A DNA stretch of 64,000 nucleotides, taken from positions 1,239,777 to 1,303,776 of the forward strand of contig CAXXVS010000001.1 in NCBI GenBank assembly GCA_963674755.2, in the 5' to 3' direction. The position numbers and the translations under genes are program-made. The DNA comes from Desulfobacterales bacterium. GTDB taxonomy: Bacteria; Desulfobacterota; Desulfobacteria; Desulfobacterales; UBA5852. Of this stretch, positions 45,610 to 56,140 are shown piece by piece (within the stretch, counting starts at the first letter, position 1; the number at the start of each line of letters is the position of its first letter). The notes below the pieces were generated by a model that saw only the letters and a program-made list of their open reading frames with translations, had not been told where the DNA came from and made no database searches.

Positions 45610-46675
45610 GGGGACGCCCTTAATTTATTAACTTGGCGTTTGATAGCGGGTTTGATACGCTTCCGCGCATGCCACGCCAATCCCGCTTAGACGCCCCCGG
45701 CGCCCTGCACCACATCATCGTTCGCGGTATCGAGCAGCGCAATATTTTTGCCGACGATCGTGATCGATGCGACTTCCTCGACCGTTTGGGCGCTATTGTT
45801 GAAGAGACCAATACCGGCTGTTACGCCTGGACCCTGATTCCCAACCATTTCCATCTCTTGTTGCGCACTGGCAGCGTTCCAATAGCCACCGTGATGCGGC
45901 GTCTGCTGACCGGACATGCCGCACGATACAACCGCCGCCATCGCCGCAACGGGCATCTGTTCCCAAATCGTTACAAATCCATCCTCTGCCAGGAGGACAG
46001 CTATTTCCTGGAACTGGTGCGTTACATCCATTTGAACCCTCTGCGGGCCAAACTGGTCGAGGACATGGACCGCCTCGGTAAATATCCCTTTTCCGGCCAC
46101 AGCGTCATCATAGGCAAAACTCATCGATCCTGGCAGGATATCGATAGAGTGTTAAGTCATTTTGGGCAACAAAGAGGACCGGCGCGTCGCAGCTACCGTT
46201 CGTTTGTCTCGAAAGGAATAAAGCATGGAAGGCGACCGGATCTCACCGGAGGCGGATTGATTCGGAGCCAGGGTGGCTGGGAGGCGGTCAAAAGCCTACG
46301 AAAAACCGGAGAGCACCGCAAAAGCGATGAACGCATCCTCGGCGATAGTGATTTCGTCAAAAAAGTGCTGGCCCAAAGCGAGGAGGCCTTGGAGCGAAGG
46401 GCATCGGCATCGAGGATATTGCCGAGCGTGTGGCGCATCTGCTCGGAATGACATACGATGAGGTATGGCTTCCCGGCAAATATCAAAAGCAGGTTGCTGC
46501 GCGCAGTCTTCTGTGTTTCTGGGCGGTAAACGAGTTGAGATTCAGCGTGACCGCACTTGGGGAAAAGTTGGGTATTTCCGCACCGGCTGTCAGCAAACCG
46601 GTACTGCGTGGCGCTGCAATTGTCCAAGAAAATGGCTATGCTATTTTGGGAAGTTAAGAGGGAAAGGGCGTCCCC
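45610..46675 (+). mobile_element. REP-associated tyrosine transposase (RAYT/Y1 HUH) element with 12-bp terminal inverted repeats; ORF from 45669 frameshifted near 46400
   Basis: HHIIVRG, PNHFHLL, YIHLNP; C-terminal HTH in another frame (46430-46657); GGGGACGCCCTT...AAGGGCGTCCCC. Confidence 0.85.
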
Positions 46676-46680
46676 AAAAC

Positions 46681-47548
46681 GCCCCCAGAGATCTTTATGC
46701 CGGCGATGATTTTGGGCTTCAACTGGATGAGACCGTATACGCCCTTGATGCCAGCATCATCGATCTTTGTTTATCCGTGTTCCCGTGGGCGGGCTTTCGA
46801 AAAACCAAAAGCGCGGTGAAGTTGCATACGCTCTTGGATCTAAGAGGGAACATTCCCTCTTTTGTTGCCATCACCGACGGGAGATATCACGAGGTTAATA
46901 TCCTCGACGTTTTGCTGATGGAACCCGGCGCGATTTACATCATGGATCGCGGCTATCGCGATTTTGAGCGCCTTTACAATGTGGACCAAGCCGCTGCGTT
47001 TTTTATTATTCGGTCCAAAGCCAACACGCGAATGCGACGGCTTTATTCACAGCCTGTGGATAAGCCCTGCGGATTGCGCTGTGATCAGATTGTCGTTCCA
47101 GCAGGATTTTACGCGGCCAAGGATTATCCGGGAAAGCTTCGCCGGATTAAATATTACGATCAAGATCGGAAGCGCCATCTTGTTTTTCTAACCAACCATT
47201 TCAAATTACCGGCGCTACAGGTCGCCGAACTTTACCGCTACCGCTGGAAGGTGGAACTCTTCTTCAAATGGATCAAACAGCATCTGAGGATCAAGGCCTT
47301 TTACGGTACATCCGAGAATGCGGTGAAGACGCAAATCTGGATCGCCATTACGGTTTATGTGTTGGTGGCGATCATCAAAAAGCAGCTGAAAATCGAGTTG
47401 AGCCTCTACACAATTTTACAGATTTTGAGTTTGACTAGTTTTGAAAAATTATCGCTATTACAGCTGCTTACGGAAAACGAATACAAAAATCAAATTACTA
47501 CCGGACATATGTAGCTGAATTTATTCGATTCTTAACCGGACACTACTG
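46681..47548 (+). mobile_element. 5'-truncated IS4-family transposase with right end
   Basis: ALDAS, KLHTLLD, MDRGY, YRYRWKVELFFKWIKQ; stop at 47512-47514; end sequence TAACCGGACACTACTG. Confidence 0.88.
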
Positions 47549-48805: not shown

Positions 48806-50524
48806 TCATATTTCGTAATCTTCAATCCTAAATAATTTATCATCCTCAGACAATTTTAAAATAAAGAATTCTTCATTGTCTAATTGTGAAGGGAGCTTGT
48901 CTTTAAGTATTGATGCCACGAATTGTATATTGCTTCTATTTACTAAATCAGCAATTTTAACCAATTGATTATCATGCATAAGCTCCTTCTTGTCATTTAA
49001 CAAGAAATGCATGCAAGGGATATTCTCTTCATCTGCAAAAAAGGTGTATGCTATATCAAAACAAGAAATTTCACCTTGTTTTTTACCAGAGCTGAAATTT
49101 AGATTAAAAGCGCTGAATTTATATAACTGCTGACCTTTACTGTTGGTAACTTTATCGTGTTTTAATGCATATTGTTCTCCATACAAGGTGTTTGAAGTTG
49201 ATGAAAAATGCTTATTAAACTTATTAATTTGAAGTTTCACTGTTGCTTCAAAATCATCAGAAAAAAGATCATCATTTATAATTTTAAGTTCTTCATTGTA
49301 GGCTTGTAAATTTTTTTCAACCTCTTCTAATTGTTGAATTGTGCTCTCATAATCTCCTTTTTTCCTATACTTTTCGTTGAGTTCAACAATTAGGTTTTCT
49401 AATTCTTCAAAAGAATCACTTTTTGATATAAGAGCAGAAAGCTCAGCTTCTTTTTTTAGTAATAACTTAAGATCAATATTCTTTTCATTAATAATTTTTC
49501 TAAGAGCTGGAAGTTCTTTGGTGATATAGTTAATTTTTTCATTAATCATCTGATTGTGATAATGTACCATATCCTCAAATGACTTTTGAATAGAAGCAAT
49601 GTTTATTTTGGCTTGATTATATATTATTTGCAGCTGCTGAAAATCAATTTCCGAAGTGCTAGACGATAATTCCTTCTCAGTTTCAAGAATTAAATCTTTC
49701 CTTATATTAAATTTGCTAATTTCAGAGCTTAATAAATTTATCTGATATTTTATCTGATTTAATTTTTCTAAATCTTCCTCGAAATGTTCATTGATATTTA
49801 AATTTTCCCGTTTTTTGTTTAAATTTTCTATATCAATATCAAGTAAAGATAATGCCGCTTCATATGCAGATTTTGTTTGAAATTTTTCTAAACGGTTTTT
49901 AAAGCTGGTTTCTTGTTTAATTTTTTGTAAAATTTCTTGTTTAGTATTACCCTTAGAAAAATCGCAACCTAAAAGAAACAAATACAGAGTTTCGTATTCA
50001 GCATCGGTAGTGTACTTATCAAGCGTTTTAAGCGTATTATTGATGCTTAAATCTTTATAACGAATGTTGTGTGAGATAATCTGTCTAAATGTAGGCTTAT
50101 AGGCTGAATGCTCAGGAAAGAATAATTCCTTTAATTTTTGTTCAAAATCGACTTCGGTATAATTTTCACCATTTATTTTACGCATTATTTTATTTCTGGA
50201 CAAAAAATTACGCTCTATAGTAAAAGTTTTAGCATTTTTATCGTAAAAATCATCCGCAATACATAAAGAAATTACAATATTATTTTTTATCAAGAAATCT
50301 TTTACTAGTTTATAGATAATTTTTTTAGATTCAGGATCTTCATAAATTATTTTTTGCTTTGCGCCAAAACAAAAATCGATTAATTTTAAAACAGTTGTCT
50401 TACCTACGCCATTCCCTGTAATCTTTCCTTCACTTTCATCAACAATAAGATTTATACCCATTCGAAATTGGATTTCACGAATTATTTCAGACGGGCTAGA
50501 AATCGTAAGGGATTTTAGGAACAT
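48806..50524 (-). CDS. SMC-like ABC ATPase (DUF2326) of an ABC-three-component/Lamassu system, LmuB-like
   Basis: Walker A GNGVGKTT, long coiled coil, FSSGKKQGEI signature, FLLND. Confidence 0.85.
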   Translation of the reverse strand: MFLKSLTISSPSEIIREIQFRMGINLIVDESEGKITGNGVGKTTVLKLIDFCFGAKQKIIYEDPESKKIIYKLVKDFLIKNNIVISLCIADDFYDKNAKTFTIERNFLSRNKIMRKINGENYTEVDFEQKLKELFFPEHSAYKPTFRQIISHNIRYKDLSINNTLKTLDKYTTDAEYETLYLFLLGCDFSKGNTKQEILQKIKQETSFKNRLEKFQTKSAYEAALSLLDIDIENLNKKRENLNINEHFEEDLEKLNQIKYQINLLSSEISKFNIRKDLILETEKELSSSTSEIDFQQLQIIYNQAKINIASIQKSFEDMVHYHNQMINEKINYITKELPALRKIINEKNIDLKLLLKKEAELSALISKSDSFEELENLIVELNEKYRKKGDYESTIQQLEEVEKNLQAYNEELKIINDDLFSDDFEATVKLQINKFNKHFSSTSNTLYGEQYALKHDKVTNSKGQQLYKFSAFNLNFSSGKKQGEISCFDIAYTFFADEENIPCMHFLLNDKKELMHDNQLVKIADLVNRSNIQFVASILKDKLPSQLDNEEFFILKLSEDDKLFRIEDYEI

Positions 50525-50739
50525 AATTCAACCAGGTCTTTTCTAAATTCAGCTGTGTCAATAATATAAAGCCAATCAAGGCATAAGACAAATACCGGAA
50601 AAGACATTTTCTGCACTTGATTGACTTTTTGATAGAGTTCTAACATTCCAATTTTATTGTTATCATGCAACACTTTCAGGACAATAGCCCCGTTAAAATA
50701 GATACTATTTACAGGATGTACGTTATCAGGGAGCAGCAT
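50515..50739 (-). CDS. ABC-3C middle component, LmuC-like
   Basis: 74 aa, MLLPDNVHP..SIYFNG..LDWLY; overlaps both neighbours. Confidence 0.8.
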   Translation of the reverse strand: MLLPDNVHPVNSIYFNGAIVLKVLHDNNKIGMLELYQKVNQVQKMSFPVFVLCLDWLYIIDTAEFRKDLVELCS

Positions 50740-51694
50740 AGTTATAACCTACAGGATTTTTAAATATCTTACAACGAATAAATGCATCAACTGTCAATAT
50801 ATCAACACATAATTCTAGTTCGTCTATAGGAATATGGACATAATTTGAACTTGCAAGGATTTTATTCTTTATTGCATCAAGTACAGAAAAGAAAACATCA
50901 TCTGGGTTTTCATTATTCTTAAATCTCAAATATTCCCGTTTAAACACGGCGAGAACTGAATTGCTTTTATTTTTCCCTAAGCTATCGAATTCAGAATATT
51001 TTGCATCAACCTTCCCATGATACAGGCTATACTCTTCAACTAAAAGCTTTGCTGATTTTAATTCGTTATATTCAATTTTCCTTCCTATTTCAAAGTGACT
51101 TAAAGAATCAGGGTTGTTTACATCATCCCATTTTTCTTTTGCCAAAATATTGATTATTGATGCTAAATTAGAATCCAATTTAACAATATCTATTTCATTT
51201 CCGAGCTCTTTCTTAATAAACTGGTAAATTTGTTTTAGTCTTTCAATATCATCAGTTAAAATTGTATTGAGGATTGAAGTTACATCATAAATATCTTCAG
51301 ACGGATTAAAGGATATTAAAAATGGATTATTAAAAGTATGTTTTCTCAAACTCGAAGCATCTTTTGCAATTGAAATAAACTTAAATGTATAATTTTTATA
51401 TGTTTTAATTAAATTTTTCCCTAATGCTAATTCTACTTTAGGTTTAGTATTTTTTGCAGAAACTTGAACAACAATTTTGTTGGTATGGTCGATCAAATCG
51501 ATTGCTTCAATATTTTGAAGAGATTTGTTCATATTTTCTAACTTATAGTCATAAAGCAAATTAAAGAAATGAAGATAAAAATTTTCAGAATGCATGTGTA
51601 GGCTTAACATATTTAGTTTGCCATTAGTAATAATTCGATTGGCAAGGGTATGTATTTTCTCTTCGATGTAATTATAATATAGAATTCTATTCAT
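50726..51694 (-). CDS. SMEK-domain effector with ABC-3C C-terminal domain, LmuA-like
   Basis: HSENFY, AIDLID..VQVSA nuclease-like N-terminus; DAFIRCKIF C-terminal motif. Confidence 0.78.
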   Translation of the reverse strand: MNRILYYNYIEEKIHTLANRIITNGKLNMLSLHMHSENFYLHFFNLLYDYKLENMNKSLQNIEAIDLIDHTNKIVVQVSAKNTKPKVELALGKNLIKTYKNYTFKFISIAKDASSLRKHTFNNPFLISFNPSEDIYDVTSILNTILTDDIERLKQIYQFIKKELGNEIDIVKLDSNLASIINILAKEKWDDVNNPDSLSHFEIGRKIEYNELKSAKLLVEEYSLYHGKVDAKYSEFDSLGKNKSNSVLAVFKREYLRFKNNENPDDVFFSVLDAIKNKILASSNYVHIPIDELELCVDILTVDAFIRCKIFKNPVGYNYAAP

Positions 51695-51809: not shown

Positions 51810-52198
51810 TCAATCACTATTCAACGATATCGGCGGCAAGTTCTCCACTATCCCACGATGCAAATTGATGTTGGTATGCTGGTAAATCCGGGTTGTGGTT
51901 TCGGTGCGGGAGTGGCCGGCCATTTCGGAGACACCTTTAAGGTCGCCGCCGGCGTTTAACGCCGCCGTCACGAAGGCGTGGCGGAAGGCGTAGGGCGGCA
52001 ACTTGCGGTTGGGATCAATTTTGGCTTTGCGTTTGACCCGCTTGAACGCGCCGGCGATCCGTTTAATTGGTCTCCCGCGCCAGGTGATCAAATAGCGGCT
52101 GTCGTCGCCGTCTTTAGCCATTCATTGTTTTAGCATGCGGTTGAAATCCGCATTCAGCGAAATCAAACACGAATCGCAGCCGCCTTTGCGGTCTGTCA
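51810..52198 (-). pseudogene. Tyrosine integrase C-terminal relic
   Basis: YAFRH, AGHS, IYQH catalytic motifs; in-frame stop just upstream of 52121; N-terminus absent. Confidence 0.85.
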
Positions 52199-52832: not shown

Positions 52833-52866
52833 AGGGGGTTAGAGACGATGATCTCTAACCCCCTGT
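52833..52866 (-). terminator. Terminator-like hairpin after the tRNA 3' fragment
   Basis: AGGGGGTTAGAGA-cgatga-TCTCTAACCCCCT flanked by A/T tracts. Confidence 0.75.
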
Positions 52867-52872
52867 TTTGTT

Positions 52873-52895
52873 TGGCTCCCCAGCACGGACTCGAA
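52873..52895 (-). repeat. 23-bp duplicate of the tRNA-Asn 3' end (att-like)
   Basis: TGGCTCCCCAGCACGGACTCGAA identical to 55803-55825. Confidence 0.9.
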
Positions 52896-52929
52896 TCACG
52901 CCATTGGCGTGATTTCGGCCCCAGGACCT

Positions 52930-53277
52930 CAACCATTGCGGACTCGGTGGTTAATCCCGCCTCTGGCGGGACTCTGCCGACGTTTGGTCCTGAAGATACC
53001 GTGCAATACCGCGTTTTTTAATCTTACGCTCCAGCGATGTGGCTTCGCTGCGATCATCACAGCGGTGAGTCCAAATCACCTTCCAAGGGCCTGCGAACCG
53101 TTTGGTGGTCTTGGATAGCTTATAGTCTGGGTCGTTGTGCTGCCGGAGTCGCTGCTTGACATTGGTGCTTTGGCCGCAATAGTAGCGGTTGCTGACGTCG
53201 CTATAGAGGATGTACACCCAATAGGCCATAAAAAAGCCCTGCCGAATAGCCGGCAGGGCTTTTGTTTTTGGCTCCCC
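52930..53277 (-). repeat. 348-bp direct repeat copy B (tRNA 3' end, terminator, GIY-YIG, pseudo-tRNA)
   Basis: Colinear with 55464-55811. Confidence 0.92.
52951..53229 (-). CDS. Small GIY-YIG nuclease (92 aa), copy B
   Basis: WVYILYS..YYCGQS..RLRQHN..LERKIK. Confidence 0.9.
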   Translation of the reverse strand: MAYWVYILYSDVSNRYYCGQSTNVKQRLRQHNDPDYKLSKTTKRFAGPWKVIWTHRCDDRSEATSLERKIKKRGIARYLQDQTSAESRQRRD

Positions 53278-53451
53278 GAGTGTAACCCTCTTCACAGCAT
53301 TCTCCAATTGCCAGGAAACCGACAACTAATTGGAATTAAACAACTTTATAAATGACAGACAGTTTTCTCCAAGAGTAAGTGATTTAAGGGCATTTTCCAA
53401 TAATCATATACAGAATTATAGGCTTTGTGGTGCAAACCGTCGTTCCACTTT

Positions 53452-54333
53452 TTACTTTAGCTTGGCGGCGAGCCATTCCAATGCTCCCGGCGTCGTCTGC
53501 CATGCCGCTATATTTGCATAGGCATATGCCACAGCCTCTGAATCATCGCCAAAGCCGTAATGGTCCGGCAGGTTTCGTGGCATTTTCTTGCGGCCCAGGA
53601 GATAGGACGGTACGAACTTGTTTTCGGCCAAAGCGGCTTTGAGCGATGCGCCAGCCTTGGGGGAATCGCCGTACTTTCTGAAATCCAAGAGCAACCGCGA
53701 GTACATCCAGGTGGCCATGCCATCATCATCGAACTGTTTGAACAGTTTTTCAGCATCCTTGTCACGGCCGAGCTCAAGCAGGCATGGCATCAATAGATCG
53801 CGAATGCCCTGGTTGTCGTTTGGGTTGAGCCGCAGCAGATCCTGATAATGCTCAACCGCCTCTTCACGCCGGTCCGCGGCCCACAGACATTGCGCCAACC
53901 CTGCTCGCGCCCGCATGTAAGGCCGTGTTTCCAGCAAGCCCCAGAAATGGCCGACATCCTCAACGAAAGCTTGCTTTCCGATGGCGCGCTCGCCTGCTTC
54001 GACGCCCTTGGTGTACAGGTCGATGGCTTCTTCCACCGATTTTGCCGTTTGCTCGGCTAAAAAAGTGTAAGCGTCCGCACAATCCGGCGAGATCGAAAGC
54101 GCTTTTTTGGCCAGCACCACGGCCCGCTGGCGTGTCGGAGCCTCCCAGGCATCATACATGAGCTGCTGGGCCTCAGCCACTGCATCACTTTGCCGCCCCC
54201 CAGGGCCAATGCCCGCAAAGATACCTTCCATCGACTGCATGGAAGGAAATTCAAACGTCGCCGAGTTGGCAGCCTGCTGCTTTGGCTTTTTCCTGGCCCT
54301 TGTCTTTTTCTTGGCCGGCTTTTTCGTGCCCAT
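53452..54333 (-). CDS. TPR-repeat protein of unknown function
   Basis: AQQLMYDAWE, SPDCADAY, FWGLLETRPYMRAR, LNPNDNQGIR. Confidence 0.8.
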   Translation of the reverse strand: MGTKKPAKKKTRARKKPKQQAANSATFEFPSMQSMEGIFAGIGPGGRQSDAVAEAQQLMYDAWEAPTRQRAVVLAKKALSISPDCADAYTFLAEQTAKSVEEAIDLYTKGVEAGERAIGKQAFVEDVGHFWGLLETRPYMRARAGLAQCLWAADRREEAVEHYQDLLRLNPNDNQGIRDLLMPCLLELGRDKDAEKLFKQFDDDGMATWMYSRLLLDFRKYGDSPKAGASLKAALAENKFVPSYLLGRKKMPRNLPDHYGFGDDSEAVAYAYANIAAWQTTPGALEWLAAKLK

Positions 54334-54418
54334 TACATATCCTTTCCGGTTGGAAGAACTTACCTCCGTCGGCCGATATCCATTAAGCCAGCCGCCCTAA
54401 TAAAATCAGTTGGCAGCC

Positions 54419-55396
54419 TTAATTCCGACTGTTGATCAGATTGACGATTAGTTTGATCATTGTCTTTTTATCCGCAGGTTTGCTTTCGGCGATCATCAGC
54501 GTGATAGCCACCAGAGCATTGTCGGCGATCCGCTTCGTTCCATCTTTGCGGTAAAGCGCTTTGTTGCCCGCCAGAAAGGCAATAAACAGGGCGGCTGCAA
54601 TACGTTTATTGCCGTCGCTGAAGGCGTGGTTCTTAACCACGAAGTAGAGCAGATTGGCGGCCTTTTCCTCGATGCTGGGATAAAGTTCGTCGCCACCGAA
54701 AGTCTGATAGACTGCTCCTAATGCGCTTTTGAATCCCTGGTCCTTTTCAAGCCCGAACAAGCCGCTAAATCCGGGTTGCATGGCCTTGACGATCCCCATG
54801 GCCGCATCATAGGTCATGATGTATGGTGCCGGACGTGTAACCTCCTCGATGACCAAGGTCCCGTGATCGAAACGGTCCAGTGTCGTCAAGGCATAGGCAT
54901 AATCGGTGATGACGTTCAAAAGTCCTTTGGCTTCATCCAGGCCGATGACCTGGTGAGCCAGAGTCTTTTCCAACAGACCGACGGTGCGGCGCAAATCTGC
55001 CATTTTCTGTTCCTGCTCCTGAAGCCGCTTTTCATTGAGGGTGAATCCTCGCACAAGATGCTCCCTCAATACATTGGTGGCCCAGATGCGGAACTGGGTG
55101 CCGCGTTTGGATTTGACCCGGTAACCCACTGAAATAATGACATCAAGATTGTAAAAGCCAACCTTGCGTCTGACTTGCCGCCCTCCTTCATTTCGAACTA
55201 CCGAGGATTCCTCGGTAGTTCCCTTCCGGGTCAACTCACCTTCCTTGTATATGTTGCGGATATGCAGGCCGATGGTGTCCGTGTCCTTGTCAAACAGCTC
55301 AGCCATCTGACGCTGGTTGAGCCAGACCGTTTCACGGTCCAACTGTACTTCGAGTTGCACCCCTCCGTCATCAGATTGATAAAGAATCACATCCAT
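54419..55396 (-). CDS. RhuM/Fic-Doc family protein
   Basis: ETVWLNQRQMAELF, VGYRVKSKRGTQFRIWAT, Fic/Doc motif HAFSDGNKRIA. Confidence 0.9.
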   Translation of the reverse strand: MDVILYQSDDGGVQLEVQLDRETVWLNQRQMAELFDKDTDTIGLHIRNIYKEGELTRKGTTEESSVVRNEGGRQVRRKVGFYNLDVIISVGYRVKSKRGTQFRIWATNVLREHLVRGFTLNEKRLQEQEQKMADLRRTVGLLEKTLAHQVIGLDEAKGLLNVITDYAYALTTLDRFDHGTLVIEEVTRPAPYIMTYDAAMGIVKAMQPGFSGLFGLEKDQGFKSALGAVYQTFGGDELYPSIEEKAANLLYFVVKNHAFSDGNKRIAAALFIAFLAGNKALYRKDGTKRIADNALVAITLMIAESKPADKKTMIKLIVNLINSRN

Positions 55397-55484
55397 CAAT
55401 CCGGCTCCTTTTCAAACGAGCTCAAATTCGATCTTAACGCGTGAGGATCTTGTCGTTTTCGGCCAACCATTGCAGACTCGGTGG

Positions 55485-55763
55485 TTAATCCCGCCTAAGG
55501 CGGGACTCAGCCGACGTTTGGTCCTGTAGAAACCGTGCAATTCCGCGTTTTTTAATTCTACGCTCCAGCAATGTGGCTTCGCTGCGATCATTACAGCGGT
55601 GAGTCCAAATCACCTTCCAAGGGCCTGCGAACCGTTTGGTGGTCTTGGATAGCCTGTAGTTTGGGTCGTTGTGCTGTCGGAGTCGCTGCTTGACGTTGGT
55701 GCTTTGGCCGCAATAGTAGCGGCCGCTGACGTCGCTGTAGAGAATGTACACCCAATAGGCCAT
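55485..55763 (-). CDS. Small GIY-YIG nuclease (92 aa), copy A
   Basis: 84/92 aa identical to copy B. Confidence 0.9.
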   Translation of the reverse strand: MAYWVYILYSDVSGRYYCGQSTNVKQRLRQHNDPNYRLSKTTKRFAGPWKVIWTHRCNDRSEATLLERRIKKRGIARFLQDQTSAESRLRRD

Positions 55764-55802: not shown

Positions 55803-55878
55803 TGGCTCCCCAGCACGGACTCGAACCGCGGACTCGGTGGTTAACAGCCACCTGCTCTGCCGACTGAGCTACTGGGGA
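55803..55878 (-). tRNA. tRNA-Asn(GTT)
   Basis: 76-nt cloverleaf TCCCCAG...GGTGG-CTGTTAA-CCACC...GGTTCGAGTCC...CTGGGGAGCCA with encoded CCA. Confidence 0.97.
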
Positions 55879-56071
55879 ATAAATTTTAAGGCCAACAATT
55901 GGCGCGTTGCCGCTTCCCGAGACTCGGTGGTTAATCCCGCCCCTGGCGGGACTCTGCCGACTGAGCTACTGGGGAATAAATTTTAAAGCCAACAATTGGC
56001 GTGTTGCCGCTTCCCGAGACTCGGTGGTTAATCCCGCCCTGGCGGGATTCTGCCGACTGAGCTACTGGGGA
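55879..56071 (-). repeat. Two tandem 96-97 bp units, each a palindrome-substituted 5' tRNA-Asn fragment plus a 42-bp spacer
   Basis: 55921-55975 and 56018-56071 = tRNA nt 1-24, then TCCCGCC-N2/3-GGCGGGA, then nt 35-48. Confidence 0.92.
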
Positions 56072-56140
56072 TCAGATCGAAAGAATTGCTAATTATCCAA
56101 CCCCCCCTATTCTGTCAAGCAAAAATTAAACAGCCTCTAT

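Follow-up and report, generated by a model that had tools for sequence, protein, structure and literature searches.

Two small GIY-YIG genes of a Desulfobacterales genome end within hairpin-patched copies of the neighboring tRNA-Asn gene: a candidate selfish cassette

Introduction

Why should a nuclease gene borrow its last codons and its stop from a tRNA? The question is raised by two minus-strand genes in a window of Desulfobacterales DNA (the whole stretch analyzed, 64,000 nucleotides). A sequence-only reading of this window had noticed that both genes end with nt 15–24 of a tRNA D-arm, a palindrome and a stop codon lying in the anticodon loop. It had proposed that the gene is physically fused to its putative target, either because insertion at a tRNA completes the ORF or because the palindrome-bearing copy is a cleavage-resistant version of the site. 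Here we describe the anatomy of the locus, follow the gene tail and the hairpin through related genomes, and weigh the explanations that they suggest.

Results

Anatomy of the locus

The two 92-codon ORFs are GIY-YIG genes by Pfam, and their 3′ ends are built alike from nt 15–24 of tRNA-Asn, a 17-nt hairpin and nt 35–51 of the tRNA, the stop codon being in each case the TAA of the anticodon loop (Table 1). The coordinates thus confirm the architecture described from the sequence, including its second occurrence at 52938–52981, and the gene end is indeed fused to tRNA-derived DNA. In both copies the hairpin replaces tRNA nt 25–34 rather than merely interrupting the tRNA, and the encoded tails read SAESRLRRD (copy 1) and SAESRQRRD (copy 2) up to the stop. 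A 40-nt pattern made of arm, hairpin and block matches the window three times, at both gene ends and in one upstream unit (0.00 expected from 100 shuffles); folding z-scores are modest, about −2 to −3.

The intact tRNA-Asn(GTT), the sole Asn tRNA found by ARAGORN in the 6.7-Mb genome, is separated from the copy-1 start codon by 40 bp. The pseudo-tRNA of copy 1 ends after nt 51; that of copy 2 runs to nt 76, with a second, composite patch of 42 nt in place of nt 52–53, followed by intact nt 54–76. Read along the minus strand, the locus comprises a promoter-like TTGACA, two patched units, the intact tRNA, a terminator-like hairpin, copy 1, a RhuM/Fic and a TPR gene, an att-like repeat, a terminator, copy 2 and another terminator. 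No sigma-70-like promoter for the GIY-YIG genes was found on the gene strand. The two copies differ at 16 codons, 8 of them synonymously and 8 nonsynonymously, and both keep all invariant GIY-YIG residues. Altogether, gene and tRNA copy overlap at the 3′ junction of a compact cassette composed of a terminator, a 92-aa GIY-YIG gene and a hairpin-patched partial copy of the host tRNA.

Table 1. Features of the tRNA-Asn locus, in window coordinates (nt, tRNA position)
Feature	Position	Strand	Remarks
Promoter-like TTGACA	56113-56118		5′ of the two upstream units and the intact tRNA
Upstream unit A: tRNA nt 1-23, hairpin (56032-56047), nt 35-48, spacer	55976..56071	-	absent 5′ of the tRNA in same-genus genome G001
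Upstream unit B: tRNA nt 1-24, hairpin (55935-55951), nt 35-48, spacer	55879..55975	-	
Intact tRNA-Asn(GTT), anchor	55803..55878	-	ARAGORN; sole Asn tRNA found in genome
Terminator-like hairpin, tRNA to copy-1 start codon	55767..55796	-	identical sequence at 53233-53262, before copy 2
GIY-YIG copy 1 (P0001, 92 aa), Slx1/UPF0213-like fold	55485..55763	-	Y6, Y17, R27, H31, E67 intact
tRNA nt 15-24 arm within ORF 1	55506..55515	-	one mismatch
17-nt hairpin within ORF 1, substituting tRNA nt 25-34	55489..55505	-	
tRNA nt 35-51 block, copy 1	55472..55488	-	TAA 55485-55487 is the stop of ORF 1
Cargo between copies: RhuM/Fic gene (54419-55399), TPR/ST7-like gene (53452-54333)	53282..55463	-	
Att-like repeat of tRNA 3′ end, before copy 2	53269..53281	-	putative function
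GIY-YIG copy 2 (P0002, 92 aa)	52951..53229	-	
tRNA nt 15-24 arm within ORF 2	52972..52981	-	exact match
17-nt hairpin within ORF 2, substituting tRNA nt 25-34	52955..52971	-	
tRNA nt 35-51 block, copy 2	52938..52954	-	TAA 52951-52953 is the stop of ORF 2
Composite 42-nt patch for tRNA nt 52-53	52896..52937	-	ends in hairpin variant with compensated stem pair (52896-52912)
tRNA nt 54-76	52873..52895	-	23-bp direct repeat of 55803-55825; bounds 2930-bp insertion
Original tRNA terminator region	52833..52872	-	directly 3′ of the tRNA in the empty site of G001

Empty site and traces of an island

The same-genus genome G001 provides an empty site, where the tRNA-Asn is directly followed by the terminator that lies here beyond copy 2 and where the upstream units are missing. 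Relative to it, the window carries an insertion of 2930 bp, flanked on both sides by a direct 23-bp repeat derived from the tRNA 3′ end. A GIY-YIG gene stands behind tRNA-Asn in 3 of the 11 same-genus genomes with a located tRNA and at 8 of 30 loci overall.

A gene that adjoins a tRNA, is absent in relatives and lies in an insertion bounded by a tRNA repeat could be that of a homing endonuclease, which would cut the unpatched tRNA gene (recognized by sequence or as a cloverleaf) and be copied by donor repair, the patches being destroyed, resistant sites. The replacement of fixed tRNA segments by the patches also fits, and there is a precedent in phage SegB, which cuts tRNA genes, those of its own phage included at a low level (PMC2330249). 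We consider this explanation unlikely: the only intact tRNA-Asn remains exposed beside the gene, the single 92-aa domain lacks the C-terminal DNA-binding part of SegB, repeats other than tRNA are patched by the hairpin as well (see below), and immunity needs no conserved, covarying stem. The idea of a cleavage-resistant copy is weak on sequence grounds: the single-copy tRNA remains unpatched 40 bp away from the gene start, the patch would shield only a dispensable copy, and non-tRNA DNA carries the same hairpin as a patch.

The insertion contains no integrase, its four genes being the two GIY-YIG genes and the RhuM/Fic and TPR genes; a fragment of an integrase gene is found beyond its borders, at 51810–52121. 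The att-like junction suggests that the cargo region between the copies is likely a remnant of an integrative island. Because the motif adjoining the att-like repeat recurs before the GIY-YIG genes of three other loci (L001/L078, L002 and L017), an island using the tRNA end probably separated the two copies or brought them. Four contig sets showed no circle or precise excision joint; a single contig record among them matches 55070–55653 without difference and possibly comes from the source sample. In genome G004 (L105/L294), three upstream patched units with a spacer close to that of the window precede tRNA-Asn, and this locus has no nuclease match.

Two neighboring loci deserve mention. An ABC-three-component-type locus (SMEK plus CTD10, MC6, and a DUF2326 ATPase-like protein) at 48806–51694, a candidate defense system, adjoins the integrase fragment, and at 45633–47514 an ORF resembling a Y1 transposase precedes one for a DDE transposase.

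The gene tail changes with the host tRNA and is not conserved as a peptide

The sequence-only reading expected the tail to change with the host tRNA while the SRxRRD peptide persisted. The first expectation was borne out. A third GIY-YIG gene of this genome (C3:1147786–1148203, L098; 83 aa, 39% identical), located behind tRNA-Asp, ends in the Asp D-arm and a hairpin that takes the place of the entire anticodon arm; the stop lies in the loop, and the tail reads EDLVRTSR. Likewise, Pro-, Ser-, Ala- and other Asn-linked genes end within the sequence of their own tRNA or just before it, and there are mirror layouts in which the ORF enters the 5′ end of an intact tRNA (Pro, Ser, one Ala, one Asn). 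Among 240 full-length GIY-YIG matches in the fetched loci, a query-biased set that includes outgroups, ARAGORN places a tRNA no more than 400 bp away in 137 (Asn 73, Pro 33, Asp 13, Ala 10, Ser 3, others 5) and none in the other 103. On the protein tree, isotype labels change 18 times against 44.1 after shuffling (83 of 232 rows kept after thinning, with weak branch support). Protein clades thus appear to keep mostly to one isotype, which would also suit homing; the labels, derived from 16-mers, are noisy, L002 and L212 being labelled Phe and Asn-linked by inspection.

The peptide itself does not persist. In the best 120 of 236 homologs, the C-terminus is RD in 36, ESRxxRD in 33 and GC in 16, and the 118 of these 120 that have a KxRG motif continue for 8–66 residues after its last occurrence. 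Of 99 Asn-clade ORFs, 33 stop at the TTAA of the anticodon loop, 24 within the 5′ arm and 8 within the hairpin; 8 have their stop further on and 1 before the arm, the other 25 having no clear arm (19) or no hairpin (6). The distance from KxRG to the hairpin at site 24 can be divided by three in 47 of 63 loci, and the hairpin is out of frame in 16. A functional SRxRRD peptide was rejected on account of these variable ends, frames and stops; AlphaFold confidence also drops in the tail, to 77 and 54 for the last two blocks. Given this lack of conservation, the tRNA-derived tail is probably incidental, translation reading through passively until it meets a first stop. Insertion at a tRNA therefore completes the ORF only trivially, through the stop that the tRNA contributes. 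The fused tail is of little interest in itself, and annotators should not take such tails or the patched copies as functional.

Conservation resides in the hairpin and its junctions

In an alignment of 97 17-nt hairpins, each of stem pairs 1–6 is standard in 92–95. Pair 3 changes from C-G to A-T on both sides in 6 of the 97, pair 7 is C-G in 51, T-A in 29 and G-C in 7, and the loop takes 43 different forms. GNA loops are enriched (23 against about 6 expected), their reverse complement mildly so (10/97); GNA triloops are unusually stable in DNA. Apart from tRNA, no Rfam family reached threshold. A hairpin lies within 300 bp of the gene for 87 of 95 Asn-clade genes.

The junctions with the tRNA are also fixed. 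Of the 63 patches with both arms, 42 join nt 24 to nt 35 (24|35); the others are 38|47 (4), 38|54 (4), 24|64 (3), 49|60 (3), 58|62 (2) and five singles, and some of these rarer junctions look like deletions between two patches. Junction 24|35 recurs with a variant hairpin in a distant nuclease clade (L229), and the Ala-linked clade has a different hairpin over tRNA nt 27–43. The tRNA-identical arm 5′ of the first hairpin measures 10 nt here (family median 13), and 7–17 nt at site 24 (n=63) compared to 6–16 nt at site 38 (n=7), so that, within this small sample, tRNA identity follows the hairpin and not the tRNA coordinate. Moreover, arms match the allele of their own host. Arm nt 14–24 show 0.83 mismatches with the host's tRNA-Asn against 2.67 after shuffling (n=29; 0/5000; relatedness not removed), and block nt 35–49 show 2.05 mismatches with the local tRNA-Asn against 4.0 (n=21; 0/5000; relatedness not removed); this tracking could stem from relatedness or from later gene conversion. 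What is conserved is found at the DNA level: a 6-bp stem with a variable loop, fixed tRNA junctions and arms matching the host tRNA allele.

That the arms flanking the hairpin keep to the host allele on either side raises the possibility that hairpin and arms form a protein-bound scaffold, as single-stranded DNA or as the 3′ end of the mRNA, which would pair with the tRNA gene to aim a nick, or else a tRNA-like RNA controlling the message. The site-38 loci, in which nt 9–22 have decayed and about 12–16 nt beside the hairpin remain (n=7), would agree with such a role, as would the reported ability of Ssn to cut when the hairpin is split over two oligonucleotides (PMC11893778). We nevertheless regard both versions as improbable, because hypervariable 3-nt loops with a GNA bias suit DNA better than RNA, only tRNA exceeded the Rfam threshold, and dispersed hairpins have no tRNA arms; in addition, SsnA shows no RNA binding (PMC11893778).

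Two further patches were noted on the way: a tRNA-Val copy beside an Asp-linked cassette (L084:1070–1145) carries a hairpin although Val is not the nuclease's own tRNA, and a third type of hairpin (CCTGAG...GAAGG) patches the T-arm region of some Asn copies (L007, L174, L200).

Hairpins away from tRNA genes

The hairpin pattern has 53 matches in this genome against 5 expected. The majority lie in an intergenic repeat, about 200–250 bp long and dispersed, of which 34 copies were found (for instance at C2:2570028 and C3:2524177 of this genome, G000), with a core bounded by the same arms as the hairpin. At one site of this repeat, 17 of the 34 copies are unpatched and 17 have 4 nt replaced by related hairpins; none of the dispersed hairpins is flanked by tRNA arms. 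Similar repeats are present in relatives G005, G007 and G010.

Among 41 relatives, at least 2 hairpins away from the cassette were counted in 7 of 9 genomes with the cassette and in 1 of 32 others, the subtraction of matches at the locus being an estimate; hairpin counts in these 32 stay near the reversed-pattern control (9 versus 7). In a sample of 300 genomes of the phylum, at least 3 hairpins occur in 17 of 20 cassette genomes and in 22 of 280 others, a count from which matches at the locus were not subtracted and which includes many assemblies that break at hairpin arrays. In both comparisons the groups and thresholds were set after the data had been seen, and kin are not independent, which inflates the contrast. 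The remaining 3 of the 20 cassette genomes have 0–2 hairpins; the 22 others, out of 39 genomes reaching the threshold, are those without a verified intact Asn or Asp cassette, 16 of them in cassette-bearing families and 6 not. The hairpin is thus not specific for tRNA, and it is enriched in genomes with the nuclease.

The hairpin-rich genomes without a detected nuclease, the 13 Y1_Tnp matches in this genome and the att-like junction with its cargo between the two copies would all fit a model in which islands duplicated the tRNA, another enzyme (e.g. an HUH Y1 transposase of the RAYT/TIRYT type) spread the hairpin and the GIY-YIG gene hitch-hiked. This is, in our view, quite unlikely. At the family level, Y1_Tnp does not track the hairpin, being present in 37 of the 41 relatives; the duplication reaches the D-arm and even the 5′ end of the tRNA, beyond the 3′-end repeat at the att-like junction; and the hairpin is closely associated with the Asn-clade genes, as noted above. 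Y1 transposases were also rejected, again at the family level, as the partner of the hairpin: G021 and G028 have 22 and 24 matches with 0 hairpins, and G008 has 1 match with 13.

The protein and its relatives

The two copies match PF01541 with 62.4 and 66.3 bits (cut-off 22.6), their only other Pfam match being a weak one to PF10544, and residues Y6, Y17, G19, R27, H31, E67 and K71 are invariant in 39 alignment rows. P0001 and P0002 are thus placed, from their sequence, in the GIY-YIG superfamily and keep the catalytic Tyr/Tyr/Arg/His/Glu set. The AlphaFold model of P0001 is a confident single domain (pLDDT 89.2), whose closest folds are UPF0213 and the Slx1 catalytic domain (PDB codes 1zg2, 1ywl, 7cq3 and 6seh; Foldseek E 9.5e-4 to 4e-2, phmmer agreeing). 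The chain extends no more than about 10 residues beyond the fold and has no separate C-terminal DNA-binding domain, TIGR01453 being far below its cut-off. We assume that its relatives correspond to the group labelled 'SLX1-like, cd10449'.

UPF0213-like rows lie elsewhere in the tree, mostly without tRNA or hairpin context. Five Ssn-like rows form a branch without P0001 (99*, in a tree of 80 columns only), and, on the same 80 columns, the AU test does not reject their joining with the Asn clade (p 0.54). Thirteen Ssn-like proteins, used as a proxy for SsnA, match the query with E values of 3e-8 to 2e-5 over 29–70 residues. The SRM motif has 0 matches around both copies and in the window and 1 match among 95 Asn-clade loci; the pattern as rendered also matched only 3 of the 21 rows in a loosely drawn Ssn-like group with flanks that appear NTS-like on inspection. 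A single scan of viral contigs with the Asn-clade alignment gave 34 pattern matches, none confirmed as viral carriage. Finally, in five metagenome loci (L150, L162, L164, L171, L180), a different small GIY-YIG family lies directly behind the Asn cassette.

Discussion

The combination of gene and hairpin, which recurs at tRNA genes, is likely selfish. In the mechanism that we infer by analogy with Ssn, and to which we assign a probability of about 0.5, a hairpin-binding nickase would expose DNA identical to the tRNA, host recombination would place the unit beside the tRNA, and selection would keep the whole tRNA. We favor it because SsnA cuts upstream of a like hairpin and because tRNA identity starts 10 nt before the hairpin here. 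More specifically, (i) the Slx1-like protein would bind the hairpin when the DNA is single-stranded, as the presumed sister family Ssn does; (ii) it would nick about 10–15 nt 5′ of the hairpin, where the tRNA-identical arm starts; (iii) as the nicked end would be homologous only to the tRNA gene, host recombination would copy or duplicate the unit beside it, the insertion step resting on host repair since a hydrolytic nuclease cannot join DNA; (iv) only products that keep a full tRNA would survive; (v) pieces consisting of the hairpin alone would behave as non-autonomous patches and spread into spare copies of the tRNA and other repeats; (vi) integrative islands using the same tRNA end may carry the cassette from strain to strain.

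A bolder version, which we hold to be rather doubtful, would make of this a mobile system free of integrase and transposase, in which a 92-aa Slx1-like nuclease works on a 17-nt DNA hairpin, the host-derived arms of 10–15 nt serving as a replaceable guide that aims the nick at one tRNA gene, while the hairpin is introduced by itself, as a replacement patch, into other stem-loop DNA. If so, swapping the arms would retarget the system.

We found no description of the cassette in the literature listings searched. The locus provides a small Slx1-like GIY-YIG protein, of a common kind, with a candidate substrate that has a defined hairpin and fixed junctions, as well as with an empty site and a predicted cut window. 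If the hairpin-binding nickase is the right explanation, it would explain a type of short palindrome that is widespread in uncultured bacteria, make tRNA genes a safe harbor for an integrase-free element and add a second family of tiny hairpin-directed nucleases to Ssn.

How does the cassette compare with known systems? Certain integrative elements restore the 3′ end of the tRNA that they enter, the insertion being bounded by a 3′-end repeat and the tRNA staying intact. The insertion described here shares both traits with these elements. Unlike them, its 2930 bp contain no integrase, the duplication extends to the D-arm, and mirror layouts duplicate the 5′ part of the tRNA. The PDB entries cited above for UPF0213 and Slx1 proteins, the closest in fold, carry no link to tRNA genes.

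SegB, a free-standing GIY-YIG homing endonuclease of phages T4/T6, is likewise encoded among tRNA genes and can drive segmental amplification of tRNA regions (PMC2330249, PMC13096335). The passages on SegB in these two papers differ from what we observe for P0001, since they describe a phage-borne enzyme with a C-terminal DNA-binding part, double-stranded DNA cutting and no isotype preference, and they contain no hairpin-patched tRNA copies. Its authors suggest (PMC2330249) that SegB tolerates exposed tRNA sites through low expression.

The REP/RAYT and TIR/TIRYT pairs (Di Nocera et al. 2013, PMC3733652) also tie small dispersed palindromes to the gene of a small DNA-cutting enzyme. The co-occurrence of dispersed palindromes with the enzyme gene, here counted among non-independent kin with post hoc thresholds, recalls their REPtrons and TIRtrons. 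Their enzymes are HUH tyrosine transposases, whereas this cassette has no HUH Y1 gene, and the term 'GIY' has no match in that paper (PMC3733652).

The closest parallel is with the Ssn nucleases and their NTS/SRM hairpins (SsnA, cd10448). In the review file of Chenal et al. 2025 (PMC11893778), SLX1-like proteins form the sister clade of Ssn, and the Ssn authors call small bacterial Slx1-like GIY-YIG proteins sparsely characterized. Both families are single-domain GIY-YIG proteins of about 92–94 aa with the conserved Tyr, Tyr and Glu at matching positions, and in both a hairpin with the same 6-bp arms lies beside the gene and is dispersed in carrier genomes. SsnA binds this hairpin in single-stranded DNA, and its cut falls a few nt upstream (PMC11893778), by our reading of the substrate lengths about 9 nt before the arm. 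The two families differ in that (i) the Ssn-like proteins that we fetched have a C-terminal segment that P0001 lacks and form their own starred branch; (ii) the window has no SRM match, and the flanks essential to Ssn, as represented by the SRM pattern, are missing; (iii) the hairpin replaces parts of a duplicated tRNA here, whereas it flanks the gene as inverted repeats in Ssn. The word 'tRNA' has 0 matches in the main text of that paper, and the supplement matches listed are a gene annotation (PMC11893778). In conclusion, these likenesses suggest that the cassette likely works in the manner of an Ssn/SRM or RAYT/REP pair, its membership in either being putative.
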